A DNA stretch of 64,000 bases, taken from NCBI GenBank assembly GCA_965203175.1, contig OZ241867.1, positions 224,001 through 288,000 of the forward strand. The letters run 5' to 3'. A program made the translations under genes and the position numbers. Source of the stretch: Candidatus Latescibacterota bacterium. Lineage in GTDB: Bacteria; Latescibacterota; UBA2968; UBA8231. The stretch's first letter is position 1; the number at the start of each line of letters is the position of its first letter. Positions 48,084 through 61,618 of this stretch are shown here, piece after piece. The notes beneath the pieces are model-generated. The model did no database searches. It was not told the DNA's origin and worked only from the letters and a program-made list of their open reading frames with translations.

Positions 48084-51000
48084 TTAGAAGTTCTCCAGGA
48101 ACTGCTGCTCTTGGATGATGGCCAGCTTGAGGATCCGACTCATGCCGTGATCCGGCAGTTCGATATGGGCGATATACATGCCGCTGGCCACCGGCAGTGC
48201 ATTGTGGTTTTGCAGATCCCAGCGCGTGAACTGCGATGGGTCGTCCTTCTCAATCGCGCGCACCAGCGTGCCGCTCATGTCGAAGATGCGGATATTCGCC
48301 TTGGTCGGCAGGTGGCTGAAGGTCACGAAGTGGCTGTAGCGGCTGGTCTCCGCCGCGTTGACGCCGAGGTAGGGATTGGGGAAGACATTGATCTTCTCGA
48401 TGTCCTCCTTAAGTAATTCGGCGTTCTCCTCTTGCCCTGGAACGAGAAAGGAAAATACGTCGTTGGCGGTGTTGACCCTGTAAGGGATCAACCTCAGAAT
48501 CTGACCGTCTTCGAGCATCTCCATCTCGTGGTCACCACTTCTTAGCTTGACCCATAGTGCCGCATGAATGTCGAAGGTAACTGCATCGGCTAAGATGCTT
48601 TTGCCTTCGCCGTATTGCTCCAGTGGCGTGTCGCTATAGTCGCTGTCGAAAATGAACAGGTACTCGCGACCACCGAGGTTGCGATCCGCCTCGTCCGAGG
48701 CCAAGTCCCAAGTGCCGTTCTCCGAAGTGGAACCCACGTTCTCGACAAAGCCGATATTGACCTGCCGCGGTGGATCGCTGTCCACTTCCCAAGCGGTAAA
48801 AGGCACATCGACAAAATCTTGAAACGCGTAATTGGGATCGCCCCCGCGCAGATAGCGGTAGCCCTTCTGCGTGTTGGTGCGGCTAAAGCGAATCTCGACG
48901 GTCTTCAGGTCGGCACCGCCGAGCGAAGAGCCGAAGAAATTGGGACCGACATCGGCACCGCCGAAAATGCCACTGCCTCCCCAGTTGACACCGGTTAGCC
49001 AGCGATCCGATCCCTCCCACTCCCAATCACTAAGCGCCAGCGGTGGGCCGAGGACCATCAATTCAAAACCGTGGTCAGGGAGGTAGATGGCCGCTCGCGC
49101 GTCGCCCGGGCCGATCTCGAACTGGTCGGCAAGGAGGGTCGTGCCACCGGTTTCATCTATCAGGCTCCACACGGTGTGGCCCTCTTCATCCGCGCCAAAG
49201 CGGACCTGATAGTTGTGGCCCGTAGTGAGCGTGGGGTTGACAACCACGACCTCAACCTCTCCCTCACTGATACCGGCGGTGTGTTCGGGGGGTATCACGG
49301 CACCAGGTTCGCTCAGATAGCGGGTGCCCGGCGGCGGTTCCTGCGGCACGCAGATCAGGCCCTGCGGCGCGCTCTCTAGGGTGGTGGTAGCGGTACCTTC
49401 GGCGGTGGCGCGGTTGTAGGCCGTCACCGCAAAGTAGTATCGCTGGCCGTTGACCAGCGGGCCGCTGCGAATGTGGTCCTGAGTAATCATGATATTGCGC
49501 TTGATCCCGAAGTCAATGCCGATCTGCAGGGGCACATCGAGCACCACGCCCGACTCCTCGTCGAGGGCAATGCCGAGAATCGTAGTCACACCATTCTCGA
49601 TGTCGAAGGTCGCCACCTTGACGCCCTGCGAAAGCGTGGCTTCGGCCGAGGGCAACTGGTAGAGATTGTAGCCTTCGAATTCGAAGCCGGGCGAACCCTC
49701 GCCTTCGGTGGCCTGAATCGACTCGTCGTCCCAACCCCAATCCAAGATGAGCGCCTCGTCGAGCTCGGCTATGCGGACATTGGGCTGGGTCGGCGGCTTG
49801 GGGACCTGGAAGAAGTTGTTGTAGGCGTCCTGCACGAACTGGTTGGAGAACTTCAGCTTGGAGACGCTGCGCAGGCGGTCGGTAGAAATGCCGCCCAGCA
49901 GCGCGACCACCACTTCCTGGGTGTCGCCCAATGCCATCTCGAAAGGCCCGGTGGCCAGCACGATGCGCCGGTCGCCAGCCGGCAACGGTACGCCATCGTT
50001 CCAGCCGGTGGCTCTGGTCGGATCGCCGTCGAGCGTGAACTTGGTGTCGGCATTGGTCAGTGGATTGGTATAGGGCACGGGGTTTTCAACATCGTCCTGC
50101 GGTTGGAAGCCGCGCAGCAGGTTGTACCACTCCTGAGTGCCCACGTATTCGCCCAGTTCTGGATCGGATATCGCGCTGCCGGCGGCAAAGTACACGAAGG
50201 CCGTCATCGGCAAGTTCTGGTAGCCGGGACGTAGCCCCTCGTTGAAGATGGCCACCGAACTCTCGTCGAGCAGTTGGTTGCCGTCCTCGTCAACGGCGAT
50301 ATTGCCGTCTTCGTCTAGCTGATAAACCGGCACGATCGGGCCTTGCAAAAAGTCGTACCCAACAGCCGGCGGGGCCAAGCCGAAGGAGACGTAGCTATGA
50401 TCGTCGTCAATCGAGTTGTACACATAACCCAAGCTCAGATCGACATCGGCACCGGCAAAGTCGTCGCCGTAATCGCCCAGATCTGGATCGGACCACTGGG
50501 CGAAATACATGTCCTCGATCACGGCATCGTCCGTGGCCTCTGCGGTGCCCTTGTAGATGACCTTGAACTTCTTGAAGATCACGTCGCCCAAGGCGTCGGT
50601 GCGCGCATAGCCCCAAAGCGTAACCTGAGCCTCCAAGCCGATGGGCAACGAGCCGTAGAGATTGGTGGTGGCCCCCTGGTCCAAATCGTTTATAGCAAAC
50701 CAGATTACCTGGTCCGCGTTGGCCAAACCCGGCTCGTCAACCGAGGGGTCGTACTGCCCATCTCCGTCGTTGTCGTAAAAGGGCGCACCCAACTCGGCCG
50801 GCCACTCTTCCCAATCGCGTCCATATTGAGCGCGCACCGCCTCCTCGTGGGCATCGGTGACTTGGCTCAAACCCATGTTGAGAACCTCGGAGGCGTCTAG
50901 CCGCAAATCCGCGGTTGCCCAGTCGCGGCGGATCCGGTAGAGCCGGGCCGTATCGCGGTCTTGGGCTACGCCTTTGGACTCGATGACCCCTGGCACGGTG

Positions 51001-51329
51001 CCGATCTCGTACGTCTGGCCGCCTACGCGCAGTTCTTGGTCATTGCCGTCCTTGACCCGACCGCCCCAGATCATGCCGTCTTGGAAGATGACTTGGGCGG
51101 TTGAGCGCGGGTAGGTCACGCCCGAATTGCCGGTGAGCGGGTCGCGAGCCGACCACCCGTCGCTCTGTATCCACATGGCCATATTGTTGATGTTGAGCTG
51201 GGTCCGTTCGGTGGACACCTCGACATCGTCTTGGGCCAATTTGGCGGCCGGTGCGCCCCGCTCTTCGCGTGCTTGGACATTGCCAACTAGGAAGAGCGCC
51301 GCCAAAAATAAGAAAACAAGCTTTTTCAT
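48084..51329 (-). CDS. Large acidic secreted protein with T9SS-like/FlgD C-terminal domain
   Basis: Signal peptide; WSDPDLG, GYDFLQGP, GDRR; FN3-like FEGYNLY..YYFAVTAY; C-terminal VFPNPY..IRIFDMSGTLVR..WDLQN..VASGMYI. Confidence 0.85.
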   Translation of the reverse strand: MKKLVFLFLAALFLVGNVQAREERGAPAAKLAQDDVEVSTERTQLNINNMAMWIQSDGWSARDPLTGNSGVTYPRSTAQVIFQDGMIWGGRVKDGNDQELRVGGQTYEIGTVPGVIESKGVAQDRDTARLYRIRRDWATADLRLDASEVLNMGLSQVTDAHEEAVRAQYGRDWEEWPAELGAPFYDNDGDGQYDPSVDEPGLANADQVIWFAINDLDQGATTNLYGSLPIGLEAQVTLWGYARTDALGDVIFKKFKVIYKGTAEATDDAVIEDMYFAQWSDPDLGDYGDDFAGADVDLSLGYVYNSIDDDHSYVSFGLAPPAVGYDFLQGPIVPVYQLDEDGNIAVDEDGNQLLDESSVAIFNEGLRPGYQNLPMTAFVYFAAGSAISDPELGEYVGTQEWYNLLRGFQPQDDVENPVPYTNPLTNADTKFTLDGDPTRATGWNDGVPLPAGDRRIVLATGPFEMALGDTQEVVVALLGGISTDRLRSVSKLKFSNQFVQDAYNNFFQVPKPPTQPNVRIAELDEALILDWGWDDESIQATEGEGSPGFEFEGYNLYQLPSAEATLSQGVKVATFDIENGVTTILGIALDEESGVVLDVPLQIGIDFGIKRNIMITQDHIRSGPLVNGQRYYFAVTAYNRATAEGTATTTLESAPQGLICVPQEPPPGTRYLSEPGAVIPPEHTAGISEGEVEVVVVNPTLTTGHNYQVRFGADEEGHTVWSLIDETGGTTLLADQFEIGPGDARAAIYLPDHGFELMVLGPPLALSDWEWEGSDRWLTGVNWGGSGIFGGADVGPNFFGSSLGGADLKTVEIRFSRTNTQKGYRYLRGGDPNYAFQDFVDVPFTAWEVDSDPPRQVNIGFVENVGSTSENGTWDLASDEADRNLGGREYLFIFDSDYSDTPLEQYGEGKSILADAVTFDIHAALWVKLRSGDHEMEMLEDGQILRLIPYRVNTANDVFSFLVPGQEENAELLKEDIEKINVFPNPYLGVNAAETSRYSHFVTFSHLPTKANIRIFDMSGTLVRAIEKDDPSQFTRWDLQNHNALPVASGMYIAHIELPDHGMSRILKLAIIQEQQFLENF

Positions 51330-51347
51330 AATGCGTTCCTCTCTTTC

Positions 51348-54300
51348 CTAGAAATTGAACTGCAGACCGAAGCGAATCTGGCGTGGCGAGTCGTAGATAT
51401 CGCCGCCCTCGTTGGACCAATAGGCTTGGCGGTTGGCCAAGTTGATCGCCTCGTAGAGTTGCACGTACTGTTGCCCGCCGCTGGCCTCGACGATCTGTTG
51501 GCTCAGTTCCGGATTGGTCAAGAAGCCATCGTCCTTGTCGGAGCCGGTGCGGTTGTACACGTTGAGCACGTTCTTGCGATTGAAGAGGTTGAGAATACGG
51601 CTATAGACCTTGGCATTGAGACCAAATAGCGAGAAGCCCTTGTCGACGCGCAGGTTGGTATTGAAAGTCCACGGCGTCGTCGAGCGGTTGATCGACTCGA
51701 GCGGCTTGCGCGAGCGCGGGTCGAAGCTGTCGAGTACGCCGGCGTTTTCTGGACCGCGCTGACCGATCGAACCGGTGACCAAGGTAAAGTTGTGCCCGCT
51801 CGTGAAGCTCATCAGCAGGTTGGCCCCGAGACCCCGCAGAATTGGGTTGGGCTCGTTGTCGGGGTAGCGGTAGTCTAGGAAGATCGAGCCGCGGTGCGTC
51901 TCGTTAAAGTCGAGCGGCGAGATGATCGTCGGCAGGTTGGTCTCGTTCTCAACCCCGGAAATGGCCGAGCCAGTATACGAACCCGTGCCGCGTGCGTCGG
52001 ACAGGGTGTAGTTCAGTTCGGTGCGTAGGTTATTGACGCGCCTGAGCTTGAACTGGAACTCAATGCCCTTGGTCGTGGCGAAGTCGCCGTTTTGCAGGAA
52101 AACGTACGCACCAGCGTCAACCGCGCTAGCCGAGAGTTGCTGCTTGCGCAACTGTATCTGCCCTTTGATGTCGCGGTAGAAGCCCGTGACGTCAAAGGAA
52201 GCGGACTCGGAGAACTGACGCTCAAAGCCGATTTCGTACTGGGTAGTCCGCATCGGCTCGATGTCGTAGGCGGTCGGATAGCGGATGTAGTTCTGGCCGC
52301 CCAACTCTAGGGCAAGGCGCGCGCCGCCGGCATACATGGAGCGCATCGCCGGCATTTGCGAGAAGCGCCCGTATTGCACGTGAAAAACCGTCAAATCCGA
52401 CACTGGGAACGACATCCCCAAACGCGGGCTAATATCGGTGTAGGTGGGAGTCTTTTCCATCGACGCGAGATCAATGGTGTAGTTTTTCGAGTCTCGCACC
52501 GGTGCTGCCGGATCCTTAAAGCGCCAGCTATCCGCGTCGAAGTAGTCGATGCGCAGACCGGCGTTGATGATCAGGTCGTTATACTCGACCTTGTCTTGGA
52601 TAAAGGCAGCGGCTACCGTCGGATGGCGCGGTGCCTCTAGCCCCTCGCGGTCGGTCTCGCGACCGAACTCGTCGAAGCCAAAGAAATCGCTGGCACTAGT
52701 CGAGCGCAGCAACCTAACAAGATCCTGCTTGCTACCCTTGCCATCTTCAAGACTCTCGGCCTTCTTGAGCAGTTCGTCGAGGATCTGGTCTTCGCTTATC
52801 TCATCGTTGTAGTAGCGGTCGTACACCGCGTCCAGCTCGGGATAGGTGTTGGCTATCCCCGAGCGGATCGAACGCAACGAGATCCCATAGCGCCGCGTGG
52901 TCCAATTCTGGTAGTCGAAACCGGCCTTAAGCTGATGCATGTCGGTTTGCTTGGTCCAGCTACCGGCCAGCCCCCAATAGCCATCCGACGTGGTGCTGTA
53001 GGAGGTCGTACGCGAACCCGGGCGGCTGAAGGGAAAGCCAGCCAGATCGTAGAGCCTGGGCCCCGAACCTTGCTGGGTATAGGGCGTGTACTCACCCGTG
53101 CCCTCGAGGGCGCGCTGTACGGCCACGCTGTCGTTGTACACCCACCACCGATCTTTGAAAAGCGGGTCGTAGGACTCGGCACTCCGCTCGTAGCGGCTCA
53201 CGTTGAGTTCGTAGAACATGCTCTTGTCGAGCAGGTGGGTGATCTTGGCGTTGACTAGGTTGGAGGACGCATCCGACTCGCGCAGACGCCGGGTGTTAAA
53301 AACATTGCGGATGGGCGTGTAGTTGCTTTCAGAAAACCCGTCCGTGTACAGATTCGTGAGGCGGACCTGGACAGGATAGTAGTCGAGCAGCAAGGTCCCG
53401 TTGAAAATGACCGCTTCACTACTCGTGTGCGGAATATTGCCGGGCTTGATTTCGAGCTGCTCGATCTGGTCGGGAACGAGATTGCCTTCTTCGTCCTCGC
53501 TCCAGTGCCGGCGTCCACCGCGGAGGCCAGTGTCTTCGAGATCCTCGAAGGTAAATCCCGACCAGTAAGTCGGCCAGGAACCGATGCCGCGGCGCTGGCC
53601 AGCCAAGAAGGCGCGAATCTTCTGGTTTCCCACAACCGGACCACCGGCGGTCATCACCTGATTGAAGTAGCCGTAGGAATACGTGCCAAAGCGCTGCTCG
53701 TAGTCGTTGGTAAAATTGTCCGACTCAGAGAGGATTTCGAAGTCCCACTCGCTGCCGCCGGTGCGCAACTCTTGCAGAATAATGCCGGCGTTGGCACCGC
53801 CGTACTCGGCGTTAAAGCCGCCGGCCTGGAGCTGGATTTCCTCCAGCGCCTCGTCGATCAGGCCCACCGCGCTGCTGCCAGTGACCACATTGCGGACGCT
53901 GGCCCCCTCAACGTAGTAGCCGATCTCGTCGCTGCGCGAGCCGCGGATGTGAAGCGACCCCTCATCTTCAACCACGCCGGTCTGCAGGGCTATGACTGAA
54001 CTGACACCTCGGAGCGGCAGAATCTCGAGATCTTCAGCATCGATAATGCGCACCGCATTGGTGGCGGTTTTGTCGATGATCGGCCGCTCGGCGCGGATTA
54101 CTACTTCCTCGACCTGGATATCCGAAGAAGTCAATTCAACGGCGATATTCGTGGTCAGGTCGGCGGAGACCCGCACGTCCTCGACGGTATAATCCGCGTA
54201 GCCGATATACGTGGCCTTGAGGGTGTAGGTGCCCGCTGGCACGTTGAGAATAAAAAAGCGGCCCTTTTCGTCCGCTGTAGCCCCTAGCTTGGTATCCACC

Positions 54301-54458
54301 ACCACGATATTGGCATGGGGCAGCCCATCCCCAGTGGCGGCATCCTTGATGACACCGGCGATCTTGCCGCCCGTACTGGCCCCGGCTGGAGCCAAGCTCA
54401 GCGCGAGCAGGACGCCCAGTGCGGTCAAGACGCGAAAAACGCTCGCAAATTTAGTCAT
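51348..54458 (-). CDS. TonB-dependent receptor with carboxypeptidase-regulatory-like N-domain
   Basis: GKIAGVIKD..G, IRGSR plug, GGFNAEYG, NAGLR, SPRLG, NLFN, C-terminal PRQIRFGLQFNF. Confidence 0.93.
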   Translation of the reverse strand: MTKFASVFRVLTALGVLLALSLAPAGASTGGKIAGVIKDAATGDGLPHANIVVVDTKLGATADEKGRFFILNVPAGTYTLKATYIGYADYTVEDVRVSADLTTNIAVELTSSDIQVEEVVIRAERPIIDKTATNAVRIIDAEDLEILPLRGVSSVIALQTGVVEDEGSLHIRGSRSDEIGYYVEGASVRNVVTGSSAVGLIDEALEEIQLQAGGFNAEYGGANAGIILQELRTGGSEWDFEILSESDNFTNDYEQRFGTYSYGYFNQVMTAGGPVVGNQKIRAFLAGQRRGIGSWPTYWSGFTFEDLEDTGLRGGRRHWSEDEEGNLVPDQIEQLEIKPGNIPHTSSEAVIFNGTLLLDYYPVQVRLTNLYTDGFSESNYTPIRNVFNTRRLRESDASSNLVNAKITHLLDKSMFYELNVSRYERSAESYDPLFKDRWWVYNDSVAVQRALEGTGEYTPYTQQGSGPRLYDLAGFPFSRPGSRTTSYSTTSDGYWGLAGSWTKQTDMHQLKAGFDYQNWTTRRYGISLRSIRSGIANTYPELDAVYDRYYNDEISEDQILDELLKKAESLEDGKGSKQDLVRLLRSTSASDFFGFDEFGRETDREGLEAPRHPTVAAAFIQDKVEYNDLIINAGLRIDYFDADSWRFKDPAAPVRDSKNYTIDLASMEKTPTYTDISPRLGMSFPVSDLTVFHVQYGRFSQMPAMRSMYAGGARLALELGGQNYIRYPTAYDIEPMRTTQYEIGFERQFSESASFDVTGFYRDIKGQIQLRKQQLSASAVDAGAYVFLQNGDFATTKGIEFQFKLRRVNNLRTELNYTLSDARGTGSYTGSAISGVENETNLPTIISPLDFNETHRGSIFLDYRYPDNEPNPILRGLGANLLMSFTSGHNFTLVTGSIGQRGPENAGVLDSFDPRSRKPLESINRSTTPWTFNTNLRVDKGFSLFGLNAKVYSRILNLFNRKNVLNVYNRTGSDKDDGFLTNPELSQQIVEASGGQQYVQLYEAINLANRQAYWSNEGGDIYDSPRQIRFGLQFNF

Positions 54459-54491: not shown

Positions 54492-55205
54492 TCACATCAG
54501 GCGCAACCAGTCGTCTAAGAGAAAGGTCACACGCCCGATCAACAGCGAGACCCTCGCCATAATGGTGTAACCAAAAGAAGCCCCAAACGAGATCATCAAA
54601 AACCATATCCCCACCTTGGAGATGTGGCCCGCCGTGCCGGTGTGCTCGACGGAAAAAAAGAAATAAACCAACACCCCGATGACCCCCACGAGGACGATCA
54701 GCAAATTGAGCCCCTCCAAGCTCCAGGTTAGTGGTTTTAATGTAGGTTCTATTTGGGCCAAAATAAAGGAAGAAATATAGCGGGGAATCGTCAGGCCAGC
54801 CGCGAGCCCGACAAAGAATGCAAAAGCATAGCGGCTGAGCCAACCGAAGCGCAGCGAAAAGCGCGTCAACATCAACAGCCCGAGCACCGTCGGAGCCAAA
54901 AGCCACCAATTGGGCGTCTCCCCTTCCCCCGGATTGGTCCATTCGGCAATAATCTCGCCGTAGAGCGTCGGGTACCAATTCTGACCGAAAATGTAAGCCG
55001 CTGCCACGCCGACGAAAACGTGCTCGGCAAACTTAAAAAGAGGGTTATCCTTGTAGAGAAAACTATAGAGCGCCAAGGTCATGCCCGCCGCAACAATGAT
55101 GCCCAAGCCCGTCCAGTCCGCCGCCAAGGTCCCGTTGGCCACTAAGCCGATATTGACAGCGACAAACAGCAAAAGCAAGCCCAGAAAAATATACGTATCG
55201 CGCAC
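54492..55205 (-). CDS. Uncharacterised multi-TM membrane protein
   Basis: About 7 TM segments; YSFLYKDNPLFKFAEHVFVG, YFFFS, MISFGASFG. Confidence 0.85.
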   Translation of the reverse strand: MRDTYIFLGLLLLFVAVNIGLVANGTLAADWTGLGIIVAAGMTLALYSFLYKDNPLFKFAEHVFVGVAAAYIFGQNWYPTLYGEIIAEWTNPGEGETPNWWLLAPTVLGLLMLTRFSLRFGWLSRYAFAFFVGLAAGLTIPRYISSFILAQIEPTLKPLTWSLEGLNLLIVLVGVIGVLVYFFFSVEHTGTAGHISKVGIWFLMISFGASFGYTIMARVSLLIGRVTFLLDDWLRLM

Positions 55206-55208
55206 GGC

Positions 55209-56024
55209 TTAGCTCTCCTGTTGCAATCGGCCTCGCCGACTGGCGAAGTAAGCGATATTGCCAAAGATCACGAAAGCTACAATGATCAAATGGGTAACCG
55301 ACTGGGGAGGCATGCTCTTATTCGCCTCATCGCGGTGGTCAATCAGAACCTCGTAGGCGGCTGCACCGGCCAAGCCGCCGAGCAGGCCCACGAGTTGGCC
55401 CGAGCCGAGGAATGGATAGAGGTCTGGTGCCACCACTGCGGTGCAGCCGGCGGCAAAAGGAAAGCCGTATTTCTCCTGCCCGTAGGGAATCCACCAAAAC
55501 TCAATCGAATCCCCGGCCCCTAGGTCGAAAACGAGGTCGAAATCCCTCAGTGAGCGCACACTCCGCATCAATTCCAAATCGCCAACATCTGCGCCCCAAT
55601 TGTCCTGCGGGAAGGTGCCGTGTACGTCGTGCCCCATATTGAGAACGACGCTAAAATTGCCCGGCTTGTAGCCCATAAAGGTGTAATCCACCCCGTACTC
55701 CAAGTCGAATTCAGCCGTCATTTTGTCGAGCACCGCTTGAGCTAACCCGGTCGCTTCAGGCCACAGGCAGATGGCGACGACCTTGAGCTCGCGGCGAAAC
55801 GCGTGGCGCAAAACCGCCCGCGCCATGGGCTGCATCTCAGGAGCCGTGCTGGCACCGTAAGAAAAAGAGACTAAGACGACCTGCCCGGCGTCAAGTTGCT
55901 CGACTTGGTCGTAAGCCGCTCTCACCTGCTTGGACGGCGTGATCGGCAGGTCTAGCCCGACCAAGAGCGGCACAGCCACTCCGATAAACATCAAAGCAAA
56001 GAGGATGCGGCGATCAATCTGCAT
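55209..56024 (-). CDS. Uncharacterised membrane-anchored alpha/beta protein (probable DUF6754 paralogue)
   Basis: N- and C-terminal TM segments flank a soluble domain; LVGLLGGLAGAAAYE; start overlaps the upstream stop (TGATG). Confidence 0.85.
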   Translation of the reverse strand: MQIDRRILFALMFIGVAVPLLVGLDLPITPSKQVRAAYDQVEQLDAGQVVLVSFSYGASTAPEMQPMARAVLRHAFRRELKVVAICLWPEATGLAQAVLDKMTAEFDLEYGVDYTFMGYKPGNFSVVLNMGHDVHGTFPQDNWGADVGDLELMRSVRSLRDFDLVFDLGAGDSIEFWWIPYGQEKYGFPFAAGCTAVVAPDLYPFLGSGQLVGLLGGLAGAAAYEVLIDHRDEANKSMPPQSVTHLIIVAFVIFGNIAYFASRRGRLQQES

Positions 56025-56683
56025 CACTCGTCTCCTCCACCGCCCAAGTACGAACGCTCAATGCCGAAGATGATCCGCAGCGAGGTCGCGATGGCCCCTA
56101 GGGACACCCCGAGCAGAATCCCGCGCTTGGCCGCTAAATTCGGCACGCTCATCAGCCACTCGCTCACCAGCGGAAAATACTCGGAGATCTCTCGGCCAAT
56201 GGGCACCTGGCCTAGCATGACGATCACCGCTGCGACCAGCAACAGCGCGGCCTCGGGCGTGCGGGCGCGGAAGGTTCGGTAGGCCGCCGAAGCGATAAAA
56301 AAAGCCAAGATCGAGAACATAGTCCCCGAACAGGGCTGATGAACGTAATTGAAGAGCCAATTATAGCCCCCGGCTTCGGCCTGGGCGGCAAAGGGGCCGT
56401 GCCCATCGTTGTAGATAACGAAGAACATCATCAGCACAAAGCTGGCGATGGCAACGAAGCTGTAGCCCCAACCGACGACGTGCTGGCGGATCCGCTGCCA
56501 ATGCAGGTTGAGTAGGCTGTAGAGTCCAAGTAGATAAGAAAACGCGAAGACAATACGCACCCACAGCGCCATTTCTTGTTCAAAACTCTGTGCATTACCG
56601 TGCGGTATGTAGTAGATGGCAATGCCTAGCAGGCCAAAGACTAAGGCGACGGCCAGTGGTAAAGTCCGGCTAAAAAATGGCAT
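56024..56683 (-). CDS. Uncharacterised multi-TM membrane protein
   Basis: About 6 TM segments; LAFFIASAAYRTFRART.EA, GQVP, VPNLAAKRGILLG. Confidence 0.85.
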   Translation of the reverse strand: MPFFSRTLPLAVALVFGLLGIAIYYIPHGNAQSFEQEMALWVRIVFAFSYLLGLYSLLNLHWQRIRQHVVGWGYSFVAIASFVLMMFFVIYNDGHGPFAAQAEAGGYNWLFNYVHQPCSGTMFSILAFFIASAAYRTFRARTPEAALLLVAAVIVMLGQVPIGREISEYFPLVSEWLMSVPNLAAKRGILLGVSLGAIATSLRIIFGIERSYLGGGGDE

Positions 56684-56692
56684 GGCCCCTCC

Positions 56693-57985
56693 TCAATAAG
56701 GAGTAAAGAAGTGGGTTAGCTGGGGCAGCTCTAAAGCCGCCAAGATTGCGCCCAACACCAAAGCGGCTAAAATAAGGGCCTTGCCGGCGTCCTGGCCCTT
56801 GAGGGAGCCGAGCATTCTCGGCTCACCCGATAGATAAGCACTGGCTGCATAGAGCTCTTCGCCGAGCAGGGTATAGTCGCAGGTAGTAATAAAGAACGGC
56901 AACTGGGTGAAGGCATCGGTACCAGCGATCTGGATCGCCCCGGTCGTCGAACCTGTCTCGGCCAATAGCAGCGACTCAGCGTAGAAGTACCCCATCATAA
57001 TGTGAGCTGCCGGGCGATCGCGAACCATGATGCCCTCGACTGCCGCAGCGTAGCTAAACTGCTCGGTACCGGCGATGAAGACATGGTCTGGATTGAAAGC
57101 ATCGGGCCGTCCCGCCTCGACATACGAGGCTTTCATCGTCTCCTGACTCACAGATAGAACCACCGGGTCTGGGGCCACCACCCGCAGCGCAGTGTCGTAT
57201 TCGGCAGTGCGCCGTGCAACCCGTCCCAAGATATTGACCGCGGCAATGGTCGATATCGAGTCCATGCCGCGCAGGCCGTGAATGAAAAGCACCGGCTTGC
57301 CCATCTCGGTCGCCCGCCCTAGCGCCTCGTCGAGTGCCTCTAATCCGGCGATGCGGCGGATCTTGAGTTCGCGTCGCCGCGCAATGCCAATGTAGCCCAT
57401 GATGAGCCCTGAGAACACGAGGCACAACACTAGGTTATTGACCTTGGCGTCATTAAAAAAATTGCCTTTGGACTCGGCGTTGACGATCACCTTGCCGCGG
57501 ATCGCACCGCCGGCCGACCGCACATCGATGTGAAAGTAATACGTCTTGCCGTCTTCTAACGGCGTCTTGCCGCCCGTGCCAGCGAATTCCTCGACGTTGA
57601 CATAGTGATGATTCTCCAGATCGGCCCCACGACCAAAGAGCGCCGGCACCTCGGACATAAAATTCTCCATTGCCGCAACCTCGGTCACGACGCGAAAAGG
57701 CCCGCTGGGCGAATCGGCGATGGCGACCTGATACATCGCATTTTCGCTGATCTGACGATCTCGCTGCCAAGTCAGCGTAATGCTGCCCCCGTCGTCGTTG
57801 GGCGTGTCGAAGGCTTGGACCTCAATCGGTGGCATAGGATGTGCTAGCAACTCGCCGAGTTCCTGTTCTTCGACCGGCGGCGCAGGGTCTGTCAGCAACG
57901 TGCCGATCCCCAGTGTCTCATCTTCCGCCGCGCTCGCCAATGGCCAAGCCAAGACTAATGCAGACAGCCAGTTTTTTGCTCTCAT
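56693..57985 (-). CDS. FN3-like plus DUF6754 membrane protein
   Basis: Signal peptide; DTPNDDGGSITLTW..TYYF; TM; IRRIAGLEALDEALGRATEMGKP, FYAESL, LLGEELYAASAYLS; GAGGA RBS before ATG 57985. Confidence 0.85.
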   Translation of the reverse strand: MRAKNWLSALVLAWPLASAAEDETLGIGTLLTDPAPPVEEQELGELLAHPMPPIEVQAFDTPNDDGGSITLTWQRDRQISENAMYQVAIADSPSGPFRVVTEVAAMENFMSEVPALFGRGADLENHHYVNVEEFAGTGGKTPLEDGKTYYFHIDVRSAGGAIRGKVIVNAESKGNFFNDAKVNNLVLCLVFSGLIMGYIGIARRRELKIRRIAGLEALDEALGRATEMGKPVLFIHGLRGMDSISTIAAVNILGRVARRTAEYDTALRVVAPDPVVLSVSQETMKASYVEAGRPDAFNPDHVFIAGTEQFSYAAAVEGIMVRDRPAAHIMMGYFYAESLLLAETGSTTGAIQIAGTDAFTQLPFFITTCDYTLLGEELYAASAYLSGEPRMLGSLKGQDAGKALILAALVLGAILAALELPQLTHFFTPY

Positions 57986-57989
57986 GCCT

Positions 57990-59105
57990 TTATTCCTCAA
58001 TCAGCTCCACATTCGCCCGTGGCACTACCGCCTGCTCCCCGTCTTCAAACTCCACGGCCAATACCCGCACCCGCGCCCCGGACTCCACCGCGCACAGCTC
58101 GGTCGGCAAGTCGCTGACACGGCCGATCCGACCAAAATAGGGCATCCGAATCACCCGCAACAAATCGCCCACCTGCAATCCACCCGCGCCCGGCCGCACC
58201 TCTTCTTCCTCTTTGTCGGCGGCCGTGGGGACGATAATCTCCGGCCGCAAGACGCCAGCGCGGATCTGCGTTGCACCGGCCATGGACGCATCCATGCCAG
58301 CGCACGCCTGCAGAATATCAAAGGTCTTACGCGCCATGGCGACGCGGCCAAAACCCTCAGTCGCTACCACGGTCAGGCCGATTTGCTCGGTCCCGGTGAT
58401 GGCCACGCCCAAATCGCGACCGAGCAAGTCGCGCAAGTCGCGGTCGCGCAGGCCGCCGCCGATCAACCCCACAGCACCTGCCTGCCGGGCCTGTTCCACA
58501 GTCTCTGCGCTAATCAGGCTGCCGACCACTACAATCTTGCCCGCAACTTCCGGGCCCAGCGACCCGGCCGTGGCGTCTGGGGCATCAACCGCCAAGTGCA
58601 GTGCGCCCCAGCACTCGCCTCCCACGCCAAAAATGCCTTGGATATAAGCACCTCGCGCTGCGACGCGCACGCCCTCCTCGGCAAAAACTTCCTCTATGAC
58701 CCCATCGACGTAAGCCAGCACTTCGACCGGCCTAGGAGCTTGGCGCAATATCACCTGCCCCGTCACCGGCGAAATGCTCTCGACGGTACCGCTAACTGGG
58801 GATTCAACTGTGGTCTTGAACCAGCGAATAAATGGCTTAGTCTCGGCGAGTGGCTCGCCGGCTGCGACGCGGTCGCCTTCTTTCTTGAGCATATAGCCGA
58901 CTAGCTCTTGCGGCGAGATGCCCAAGCGGTTGACCAAGTTGAGAGTTGCCACCTCGCCCGGCAGTTCGGTGCGGGCCACGACTTGGTCGCGTCGCACCGC
59001 TTGGCCGCGTTCGACGACAACTTCGCCTTTGAGGGGCAAACGTCGCTCTTTGTCGACGACTGCGTATTGCGTCACGCGCAGTCCAGGGGTATAGGCGTGG
59101 GCCAT
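57990..59105 (-). CDS. Uncharacterised soluble protein with barrel-sandwich-hybrid repeats and a KOW-like C-terminus
   Basis: AYTPGL; GEVVVERGQAV, KKEGDRVAAGEPLA, ESPVSGTV; TEGFG; GATQIRAGVLRPE; VGDLLRVIRMPYFGRIG. Confidence 0.85.
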   Translation of the reverse strand: MAHAYTPGLRVTQYAVVDKERRLPLKGEVVVERGQAVRRDQVVARTELPGEVATLNLVNRLGISPQELVGYMLKKEGDRVAAGEPLAETKPFIRWFKTTVESPVSGTVESISPVTGQVILRQAPRPVEVLAYVDGVIEEVFAEEGVRVAARGAYIQGIFGVGGECWGALHLAVDAPDATAGSLGPEVAGKIVVVGSLISAETVEQARQAGAVGLIGGGLRDRDLRDLLGRDLGVAITGTEQIGLTVVATEGFGRVAMARKTFDILQACAGMDASMAGATQIRAGVLRPEIIVPTAADKEEEEVRPGAGGLQVGDLLRVIRMPYFGRIGRVSDLPTELCAVESGARVRVLAVEFEDGEQAVVPRANVELIEE

Positions 59106-59108
59106 GAG

Positions 59109-60890
59109 CTACTCGTATAGGTTTAACGCCTGCTGCCAGTCGCTTATCTGACGCCGGCGGTCTTGATCTGACGCCATCTGGATGGGCCGACCGCGACCGT
59201 CCAGCACTAGCCCCACAATCCCACCGCGCACCCGTGCATTTAGGGCTTGCCCTGGGCCAGCACCCACATCCCAACGCCGCGCCGGCTGGAGCGAGACTTC
59301 GACCTCCTCGCCATCGGCTAGGGGCATCCACTGTAGCTGACCGACCTGCAACTGGCCGGTTTGACGCCCGCTGGGCAGTTCTATCTCGTACTGGAGGCAG
59401 ACCTCGCCGTCCTTACCCTCGCCGACGGGGGCCACACAAGTGCCCAAGTAGATCAGGCAATCGCGCTCGAAAACCTCGGTGGCGGCCCGCTCGTCCACAG
59501 TCGAGAGCACCCCTAGGTGGGGCATCATGAAGATGCTATCGACCGCCAAGCGGGTGATGCCTTCGGGCTGGAAAGCATCTATGAGCATAGCGCAACTCTG
59601 CTCGCGGCGGGGCGCATGCGATAGCACTCCACCGCTGCCGACTATCATGTCCAGCGCCATCATCTCGACTAAACTCTCGCCGGTGGCACCCTGCTCAAAT
59701 ACATCGGCCAGCGTGCGCTTGCTCTGCACCCCCTTCAATCCCACCGCCAACGCCCGGTGCTGGTCAAAAGCCAAGCGCAGGGCTTCGCGGGCAATGGCTT
59801 GTTCTACTTGCAACTCCTGCATGAGCTGCGGGATGGTCGTCGGGCGGATCATCTTGTTCTTGATCCGGTCGCGTAGATCGGCTTCCTCAATGTCAAAAGG
59901 AACCCAGCGCATAATTTGGTCGAGGCCGGCCTCGGCCAGCACGTTGGAGACGCTATAGGACATGCCGAGATTGGCACTGACCGTGCGGTTGAACACATCG
60001 TCGAAGACGCTGAACACATCGGTCGTCGCCCCGCCGATATCCACGCCGACGACGTTGATCTCCTGCTGGCGGGCAATGGTCTGCATGATCTCGCCCACCG
60101 CCCCGGGCGTCGGCATAATCGGCGCGCTGGTCCAGTCCATCAGCGTGCGGTAACCCGGTGCCTGCGCCATGACGTGTTCGAGGAAGAGGTCGTGAATGAC
60201 GTGCCGCGCCGGGTCCAGATTTTCCTCTTCGAGCACGGGGCGGATATTCTCGGTAACGGTCAGAGCCATCTTCCCTCCCAGCGCCTTTTCAACTTCCTCG
60301 CGCGCGTCCTCATTGCCCGCAAAAATAATCGGCAACTGAAAGTCTGCGCCAAAGCGGGGCTTGGGATCGGCCGCGCTGATGAATTCGGCCAACTCGACCA
60401 CGTGGCTGACGGTGCCGCCATCCGTACCGCCCGACAGCAGCACCATATCGGGGCGCAATTGGCGGATGCGCTCTATTTTTTCGTGCGGCAAGCGCCCGTC
60501 GTTGGCAGCGAGCGCGTCCATGACGATCGCCCCGGCACCCAAGGCGCAGCGCTGCGCGCTCTCGCCGGTCATTGCCAGCACCACGCCGGCCACCACCATC
60601 TGCAACCCGCCGCCCGCACTGCTCGTCGAGATGTAGATATCGACCCCAACATCGCCGTCTGCCGGTGTGATAATCCGCTCGCCATCGAGGATCTGCCGGC
60701 CGGAAAGCTCCTCGACCTCCTGAATGGCATTGAGCACCCCCCGGGTAACGTCCTCAAAAGGGGCCTCGACCGTGGTCGGGGCCTCGCCGCGAAAGGTCTG
60801 GCGATACCCTTCGTCCTTCTTTTCGATCAAGATCGCCTTGGTCGTCGTACTGCCGCAGTCCGTGGCGATAACTACGTTGAGGTTATCCAT
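59109..60890 (-). CDS. GlmL/MutL-like (glutamate mutase L family) ASKHA ATPase
   Basis: DCGSTTTK, SSAGGGL, SGGTDGG, FAGN, PTPGAV, DIGGATTDVFS, GSGGVL. Confidence 0.88.
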   Translation of the reverse strand: MDNLNVVIATDCGSTTTKAILIEKKDEGYRQTFRGEAPTTVEAPFEDVTRGVLNAIQEVEELSGRQILDGERIITPADGDVGVDIYISTSSAGGGLQMVVAGVVLAMTGESAQRCALGAGAIVMDALAANDGRLPHEKIERIRQLRPDMVLLSGGTDGGTVSHVVELAEFISAADPKPRFGADFQLPIIFAGNEDAREEVEKALGGKMALTVTENIRPVLEEENLDPARHVIHDLFLEHVMAQAPGYRTLMDWTSAPIMPTPGAVGEIMQTIARQQEINVVGVDIGGATTDVFSVFDDVFNRTVSANLGMSYSVSNVLAEAGLDQIMRWVPFDIEEADLRDRIKNKMIRPTTIPQLMQELQVEQAIAREALRLAFDQHRALAVGLKGVQSKRTLADVFEQGATGESLVEMMALDMIVGSGGVLSHAPRREQSCAMLIDAFQPEGITRLAVDSIFMMPHLGVLSTVDERAATEVFERDCLIYLGTCVAPVGEGKDGEVCLQYEIELPSGRQTGQLQVGQLQWMPLADGEEVEVSLQPARRWDVGAGPGQALNARVRGGIVGLVLDGRGRPIQMASDQDRRRQISDWQQALNLYE

Positions 60891-61218
60891 GCTTTTGGCT
60901 TTCGCGCTGGACAATGGCCTCCGCAAGTAAGTCTATGCACTGGCGTCGCTCCAACATGCGCGTAAAGCGCTGGTACTCGTCGCGCGAAAAAACCAGCGTG
61001 GCAAACGGGGACAAAAAGGTCAGGGCCTGACTGCCCAAAAAATTGAGGGGGCGGCAAGCCTCCAACGCCATGGACGCGGCCACTCCCATCCGGCGACGCA
61101 CTAGAAACTCGGCCAGCCGCTCGGCGAGCGCGCGCTCTTCCTCAGACCAACCTGCCTCCGGGTCTTCAAGGGCGAAAGCGTGCCGCCATCGCGCTTTTAA
61201 GCTATTGACTTGGAACAT
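60883..61218 (-). CDS. Small hypothetical protein
   Basis: Overlaps both neighbours; LEACRPLNFLGSQ..LSPF. Confidence 0.75.
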   Translation of the reverse strand: MFQVNSLKARWRHAFALEDPEAGWSEEERALAERLAEFLVRRRMGVAASMALEACRPLNFLGSQALTFLSPFATLVFSRDEYQRFTRMLERRQCIDLLAEAIVQRESQKHG

Positions 61219-61618
61219 GGCACCGGACGAAACGCGCGACTTCTTCGCGGTTTTTATCGAACCGCAAGAAAACGCCGCGAAAGGAATCTAGCCGACCCGG
61301 GCGGGCGGACGGGCGCAAAAAAATACCGTCCCGATGCTCATCTGCTCGACGGAATTCCGCCCAAGAACGGCGCTGTTTAAAGCCGAGGTGTTCGCTGCTG
61401 ACTCCTTCGCCGTCGAGCACGTAGTACGTAGGAAAGAAATAGCGCGACAACGAGGCGGTCAATGCTCCCAGTGAAAATATCCCGTAGAACCAATGCTCAA
61501 AACCAAAAGCAGCAGCCGCTGAGGAAGCGACGATGAGCACGACTAGCAGTATCGACTTTGCCGGCCTCTCCCGGCGCAGGGGGTGGCTCTCCCAGCGAAG
61601 GGCGTCTGTGGAGGACAC
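61202..61618 (-). CDS. Two-TM protein with a PH-like (YcxB-type) tail
   Basis: WESHP, 2 TM, YFFPTYYVLDGEGV..RRSWAEF..GVFLRF. Confidence 0.75.
   Translation of the reverse strand: MSSTDALRWESHPLRRERPAKSILLVVLIVASSAAAAFGFEHWFYGIFSLGALTASLSRYFFPTYYVLDGEGVSSEHLGFKQRRSWAEFRRADEHRDGIFLRPSARPGRLDSFRGVFLRFDKNREEVARFVRCHVPSQ

Follow-up and report, generated by a model that had tools for sequence, protein, structure and literature searches.

The locus described here raises the question of whether two membrane proteins encoded close together, which carry similar soluble domains apparently on opposite sides of the inner membrane, derive from a single gene. It is located in a 64-kb window (by which we mean the whole stretch of DNA that was analysed) of a Latescibacterota genome consisting of a single contig of 6.58 Mb, and is composed of eight tightly packed genes on the minus strand, encoding in order S138, S111, a GlmL-like protein, BL371, the DUF6754 protein, M219, P272 and M237. 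An earlier note on this DNA had proposed that the DUF6754 protein and P272 are paralogues of opposite membrane topology. The reading that we prefer, to which we give about an even chance, is that they are different subunits of a conserved four-gene inner-membrane cassette (DUF6754-M219-P272-M237), which have the same build and are oppositely inserted.

A common build for two subunits

The DUF6754 protein (subunit A of the cassette; 56693..57985, minus strand, as for all the features below) presents a signal peptide, an FN3 domain, a first transmembrane (TM) helix, a Rossmann-like domain and a second TM helix, according to its Pfam match and its structural model. It is a clear member of the Pfam family DUF6754 (PF20539), a family that is itself only catalogued, matching profile positions 2-256 of 257 with an E-value of 2.7e-111 and 371.2 bits (cut-off 27); in the whole-genome scan with PF20539 it scores 373 bits. 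The open reading frame (ORF; 56693-58000, 435 amino acids) opens with a TTG at 58000, and an ATG at 57985 lies five codons inside, behind GAGGAA. This ATG is the more likely start, which the 430 amino acids of a close relative (P0133) also fit. In the numbering of the 435-residue ORF, the FN3 domain covers residues 52-180 (57461..57847), TM1 residues 184-209 (57374..57451) with a basic stretch following it, the Rossmann-like domain residues 218-391 (56828..57349; a helix and six beta-alpha units), and TM2 residues 394-422 (56735..56821), with conserved Q403, D404, K407 and G417.

P272 (subunit A'; 55209..56024), which is known from its model and its family, shows a simpler arrangement of TM1, Rossmann-like domain and TM2. 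Its ORF (55209-56027) gives 272 amino acids; the most likely start codon is the ATG at 56024, from which 271 amino acids result, the length found in relatives. TM1 (residues 6-23, 55959..56012) is preceded by a conserved D-R-R, the Rossmann-like domain (residues 33-228, 55344..55931) again consists of a helix and six beta-alpha units, and the C-terminal helix containing TM2 (residues 234-271, 55215..55328) has conserved Q242, S243, H246 and N257. Residues V17, P20, L21 and P28 are also conserved in and around TM1, as would be expected if this helix is kept as an anchor and not cleaved off as a signal, which also fits a soluble domain facing outside. None of the 112 representatives of the P272 family (50%-identity clusters) matches Pfam at E <= 0.01, the P272 of this genome has no match at E <= 0.1, and the 30 nearest clusters in the ESM Atlas are all unnamed, and no usable named cluster was obtained.

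The earlier note had described both proteins as an alpha/beta domain enclosed by two TM helices, and hydropathy and the AlphaFold models bear this out. Exactly two strong hydrophobic segments flank the soluble part of each protein, at residues 189-207 and 408-426 in the DUF6754 protein and at residues 8-26 and 244-262 in P272. The model of the former (m2d54b46c23af; 55 diverse sequences) has a mean predicted local distance difference test (pLDDT) score of 90.1 and is weak only in the signal peptide region, and that of the latter (m2322a11ed046; 112 diverse sequences) has a mean of 97.3. The order of elements is identical in the two models: a TM helix, a helix, six strand-helix units and a long C-terminal TM helix, the strands being located at residues 237-241, 272-276, 307-309, 332-336, 356-361 and 376-379 in the DUF6754 protein and at 50-56, 82-87, 115-120, 165-170, 191-195 and 214-217 in P272. 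The likeness of the folds was judged transitively, each model being aligned to 48,161 chains in a structural search of representatives. Both domains were found to be Rossmann-like, with three alpha/beta/alpha layers, and to align over most of their length to solved Rossmann-like domains, including MT0777 (1kjn, with 1kjn_B common to both models), RCK/TrkA-N/KtrA, SDR, sirtuin and the halves of GT-B proteins. A Foldseek search with the whole 435-residue DUF6754 model retrieved multi-domain matches with root-mean-square deviations > 25 Å, which are uninformative for the C-terminal domain. The models support the assignment of both proteins to the same build and the same fold class.

Two observations on P272 can be added. 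The loop after strand 1 (residues 51-59, 55851-55877) has the sequence S-F-D-Y-D-P across most of the family, with the D near-invariant among the 112 diverse sequences, but S-F-S-Y-G-A in this genome and in its relatives from Latescibacterota. It is therefore unlikely that an acidic residue at that position is needed for catalysis throughout the family. In one relative (P0267), the soluble domain is doubled in tandem.

Orientation in the membrane

The case for a cytoplasmic Rossmann-like domain in the DUF6754 protein is strong, as it combines the signal peptide, the FN3 domain and the bias in lysine plus arginine (K+R). Among 49 diverse sequences of this family, the 15 columns after TM1 hold a mean of 4.31 K+R versus 1.59 before it, and the tail after TM2 holds 0.31; overall, the 30 inner-flank columns contain 6.90 K+R versus 1.90 in the 24 outer ones, and the inner side, next to the domain, is the richer in all 49 sequences. 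For P272, 5.08 K+R are found in the 17 tail (outer-flank) columns versus 3.06 in the 30 domain-side columns, that is, a density of 0.30 versus 0.10 per column. Of the 53 sequences, 41 have more K+R in the tails, 8 have fewer and 4 have the same number; with untrimmed ORFs the tails led in 50 of 53, although upstream residues that are not translated may be included in this figure. The stretches quoted in the earlier note are all found in the two proteins, the C-terminal ones at residues 358-419 of the DUF6754 protein and 192-258 of P272, and the basic ones as ARRRELKIRR (207-216) in the former and DRR (5-7) and SRRGR (263-267) in the latter. The opposite topology that it had proposed finds support in prediction, through the charge bias, the signal peptide with FN3, and two natural variants of P272. 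In the first (P0336), an insertion of about 550 residues in the loop before strand 3 of the soluble domain holds a CARDB domain (29.2 bits, cut-off 22.7), which fits a domain facing outside. The second (P0371) is a natural fusion of P272 to M237, in which a linker connects the C-tail of the former to the N-tail of the latter; as M237 is predicted to have its N-terminus inside (N-in), the fusion is consistent with a cytoplasmic P272 C-terminus. The P272 domain is thus predicted to be periplasmic, probably with both tails in the cytoplasm, and the two proteins probably face opposite sides of the inner membrane.

The alternative is that the P272 domain is cytoplasmic like that of the DUF6754 protein, with its tails outside and a misleading charge bias. 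Indeed, this bias is weaker in P272 than in the DUF6754 family and runs the other way in eight sequences, and another relative (P0383) carries HEAT repeats at the insertion site used by P0336. HEAT repeats are usually a cytoplasmic domain type, and the kinds of Rossmann-like domains matched by the models (RCK, SDR, sirtuin) are also mostly cytoplasmic. Nevertheless, the difference in K+R density between tails and domain side, the retention of the D-R-R before TM1 in about 90-96% of the 112 diverse sequences, the CARDB insertion, and the fusion of the P272 C-tail to the N-tail of a protein whose loop pattern is N-in all argue against such an arrangement, and we consider it improbable.

The basic residues before TM1 also allow a variant of the preferred reading, in which the P272 domain would be exported in a folded state through the twin-arginine translocation (Tat) system, with D-R-R-x-[IV]-[FY] as an uncleaved signal anchor. 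This motif (residues 5-10, 55994-56012) immediately precedes TM1 and is well conserved (D in 98, the two R in 108 and 100, and F/Y in 112 of the 112 sequences), and behind the twin arginine come hydrophobic residues and then a proline near the end of TM1 that is kept in 101 of 112. TatC is present in this genome and in 13 of the 25 other cassette-bearing genomes. In contrast, it was not found in the remaining 12 (the completeness of which is not given), and 5 of these keep the RR; moreover, RR is replaced by one basic residue in the copies from archaea and in the second copies of Planctomycetota, and the spacing differs from that of the classical motif, S/T-R-R-x-F-L-K. Tat export of the P272 domain is therefore unlikely, and among the readings considered here we give it the least weight.

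Tests of common descent

Similarity of build and fold does not by itself establish common ancestry, and the profile-profile comparison that the earlier note had suggested as a check gave hhalign probabilities of 0.1-7.5%, none of them significant. BLASTP between the two proteins of this genome gave an E-value of 0.87. The hhalign probability was 0.6% with alignments of close relatives, 0.2% (E 0.27, 21 columns) when the 112 P272 representatives were compared with DUF6754, 2.2% (25 columns) with cleaned cross-phylum alignments (53 and 52 sequences < 70% identity, from bacteria and archaea), in a match that pairs TM2 of P272 with TM1 of DUF6754, and 0.1% with the soluble domains alone. When the comparison was restricted to the quoted C-terminal stretches, the local alignment reached 7.5% (P 0.003, a value conditional on the selection of this region) and the forced global one P 0.058 over 69 columns. 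Weighting by secondary structure brought no gain, the corresponding score being 0.0 throughout. Similarly, cross-family searches with hidden Markov models (HMMs) and filters off retrieved 0 of 441 P272-family and 0 of 287 DUF6754-family sequences at E <= 0.01, the best E-value of the DUF6754-domain HMM against the 441 being 0.031. With no Pfam match and at most 2.2% in whole-unit hhalign comparisons, P272 does not belong to PF20539.

The earlier note had also stated that the C-termini align by eye, and the register that it proposed stands out, although not beyond chance. Over two collinear windows, the sequences of this genome share 13 identities in 60 columns by eye. When all 55,647 ungapped profile windows of 30 columns were scored, the pair P272 229-258 / DUF6754 390-419 came out on top (z 5.5). 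Among the twelve best independent windows, two others lie collinear with it if a P272-specific insertion (139-164) is allowed, and the insignificant 0.2% hhalign match shares its register. However, the raw score of this top window (0.0) is attained in 34 of 300 block shuffles and exceeded by two control pairs, namely DUF6754 versus M219 (1.5) and M219 versus reversed M237 (0.4), so that the controls and the block shuffles together remove its significance. In an element-matched test considering only strands and helices, 133 of 720 permutations of the strands and 3746 of 5040 of the helices reach the observed sum. A Smith-Waterman alignment on profile scores, whose score was reached by 1 of 200 column shuffles, was rejected, as its path ends at non-equivalent positions (P272 119, DUF6754 380); column shuffling is also too easy a null model for membrane proteins.

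Some weaker signals can nevertheless be read in favour of true ancient paralogy, in which a TM-Rossmann-TM gene would have duplicated within the cassette before its spread through bacteria and archaea, one copy being flipped through a shift of the flanking positive charges, with divergence driven by folding and working in different compartments. The two genes are always together in one cassette, and the best of the 55,647 profile windows lies at an equivalent place, collinear with two others of the top twelve. Conserved residues at the start of TM2 have the same spacing in both families, with Q-S-x-x-H in P272 and Q-D-x-x-K in DUF6754, each followed by a Gly 14 residues further along. Where the DUF6754 model aligns to P272 below threshold in HMMER, it does so on structurally equivalent segments (TM1-helix-strand 1, and the TM2 region for 170 of 200 domain rows), and the DUF6754 HMM reaches at best 8.0 bits on P272 proteins, above the 0.3-5.9 bits of the other listed bitopic-against-polytopic pairs (the comparison of the M237 model with P272 is dominated by the P0371 fusion and provides no usable control). 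Against this, in addition to the shuffles and the control pairs, pairing structurally equivalent elements gives no higher score than pairing non-equivalent ones, and the reciprocal search with the P272 HMM gives only 4.3 bits on DUF6754 proteins. Furthermore, each family is strongly conserved between bacteria and archaea, so that the loss of all likeness between them would require a very early burst of change. Ancient paralogy is a tentative reading, less probable than the one that we prefer.

The comparison with known inverted-topology pairs draws on their general features. The RnfA/RnfE and NqrD/NqrE pairs, as well as dual-topology proteins of the EmrE and Fluc types, are polytopic, with short loops and recognisable sequence homology. 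As in the RnfA/RnfE and NqrD/NqrE types, the DUF6754 protein and P272 are encoded by neighbouring genes in one membrane-complex operon, have opposite K+R bias and are predicted to be oppositely oriented, and they share the same fold with an equal number of elements. In contrast, they have two TM helices each, their homology is not detected, a domain of 160-200 residues would have changed sides, and the polytopic subunits of the cassette itself, M219 and M237, both look N-in. The known pairs have short loops, rather than a domain of this size crossing the membrane, which also speaks against ancient paralogy; to our knowledge, no inverted-topology paralogue pair with a large soluble domain has been described.

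Several points weigh against the preferred reading. The orientation of both proteins is a prediction, 8 of the 53 P272 sequences have fewer K+R in their outer flanks, and the soluble domain of P0383 contains HEAT repeats. The coincidence of the registers of the top profile window and of hhalign, and the placement of the sub-threshold HMMER alignments on equivalent segments at 8.0 bits, are weak pointers to common descent. Nevertheless, no pairwise, profile-profile, HMM or element-matched test was significant, and the paralogy of the DUF6754 protein and P272 goes beyond the evidence: sequence cannot decide whether they share an ancestor gene. We lean towards explaining their likeness either by a resemblance shared by Rossmann-like domains in general or by a common origin so remote that its traces are lost.

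The cassette, its neighbours and a working model

The four genes are tightly linked. The DUF6754 ATG at 57985 lies 4 bases past the end of BL371, M219 starts 9 bases past the DUF6754 stop and is preceded by GGAGG, the P272 ATG and the M219 stop overlap as TGATG, and M237 starts 3 bases past the P272 stop; by sequence, the genes are joined as in an operon with translational coupling. DUF6754 is present in 126 of 151 sampled genomes of Latescibacterota, and P272 relatives form 3607 clusters at 50% identity (E <= 0.001). Of 111 Latescibacterota-type loci, 106 keep the order DUF6754-M219-P272-M237, as do 56 of 57 from other phyla, the latter located with a single distant protein as query. The six exceptions comprise four double matches to one family (L067, L090, L103 and L130) and two swaps (L065 and L109) judged by the start coordinate of stop-to-stop ORFs. 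The full cassette is found in 51 of the 57 loci from other phyla, which include Bacillota, Nitrospira, Planctomycetota, Elusimicrobiota, Bdellovibrionota, Zixibacteria, WOR-3, Bathyarchaeia and Sulfolobales. Two full tandem cassettes occur in L139, L140, L141 and L167, and L159 has a partial cassette followed by a full one. These tandem loci belong to Planctomycetota and to records labelled only "uncultured bacterium", and their GlmL-like and barrel-sandwich genes are not doubled within the fetched stretch.

The two polytopic partners, M219 (subunit B; 56024..56683, about six TM helices) and M237 (subunit C; 54492..55205, an ORF), both look N-in, as K+R-rich and K+R-poor loops alternate cleanly from an inside N-tail in M219 and with the same phase in M237. 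Like P272, they have no curated Pfam or NCBIfam family and no solved relative in the PDB by sequence: no family was matched above cut-off for M219 (three sporadic single-member matches among 39 members), and 0 of 40 M237 members match Pfam. The inverted repeats of transporters concern membrane-spanning bundles. The transporter-typical symmetry that the earlier note had suggested is not supported: M219 and M237 do not form an inverted pair, both having an N-in charge pattern and showing no significant similarity to each other (hhalign 0.8% with cleaned alignments). A weak likeness was observed between M219 helices 1-3 (residues 6-99, 56386-56668) and M237 helices 5-7 (residues ~125-215, 54561-54833), in the same orientation, with 8-10 bits in HMMER in both directions (sub-threshold) and 54% in hhalign on untrimmed ORFs only. 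This likeness is unproven and, if real, would not be inverted.

Upstream, the cluster opens with S138 (61202..61618), a small protein ORF with one TM helix (22-40), found in 64 of the 111 Latescibacterota-type loci; 31 of the 111 are too short to reach it. S111 (60883..61218), an ORF for a small soluble protein whose family has no assignment (no Pfam or NCBIfam match), is present in 65 of the 111. The next gene (59109..60926) encodes a GlmL/MutL-like actin-fold protein of 605 amino acids. It clears the cut-off of Pfam PF13941 (E 1.1e-128, 430 bits versus 27) and remains below those of the NCBIfam GlmL models (NF040745, 233 bits versus 475; TIGR01319, 163 versus 204); by these profiles it is GlmL-like, not GlmL. 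Its gene lies inside the fetched flanks of 30 of the 57 loci from other phyla. BL371 (57990..59105) contains a barrel-sandwich hybrid domain similar to biotin-lipoyl, RnfC_N and NqrA_N domains (PF00364, E 5.6e-7; PF13375, E 5.3e-6; PF05896, E 1e-4). Directly downstream of the cassette (48084-54458), ORFs of 1036 and 1081 amino acids resemble, by eye, a TonB-dependent-receptor-type outer-membrane protein and a secreted protein with a C-terminal sorting domain. A search of one literature library for DUF6754, PF20539 or PF13941 found no paper; PMC4682846, on mesaconase, is irrelevant to the cassette.

The association with an actin-fold protein recalls two pairs of similar-looking bitopic subunits, PilN/PilO and GspL/GspM, which belong to envelope machines operating with the actin-fold PilM. 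These systems likewise combine two structurally similar small membrane subunits without clear sequence likeness and an actin-fold protein. In contrast, their two subunits lie on the same side, with one TM helix and a ferredoxin-like domain, and we claim no homology with them.

We infer that the four cassette proteins form one complex. When the four membrane proteins were co-folded with P272 as partner, the score was 0.79, versus 0.76 for the DUF6754-replaced control, a result that weighs neither way on binding. In the proposed machine, M219 and M237 would constitute the membrane core of four inner-membrane subunits. The DUF6754 protein would reach into the periplasm with its FN3 domain, and its inner Rossmann-like domain would connect this core with the GlmL-like and barrel-sandwich proteins in the cytoplasm, coupling the membrane part to these partners in what could be a transport or transduction machine. 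P272, with both ends in the cytoplasm, would handle something periplasmic with its outer Rossmann-like domain.

It is rather unlikely, in our view, that the cassette goes back to the ancient duplication of an entire TM-Rossmann-TM subunit, with inversion of the copy, placing the same fold on both membrane faces. If this were true, the likeness between the helices of M219 and M237 would be a second trace of an old internal duplication. A complex showing one fold at both membrane faces would be architecturally unusual, irrespective of whether duplication or convergence produced it, and a four-gene membrane cassette so widespread in bacteria and archaea, for which the library search found no paper, merits a structure.

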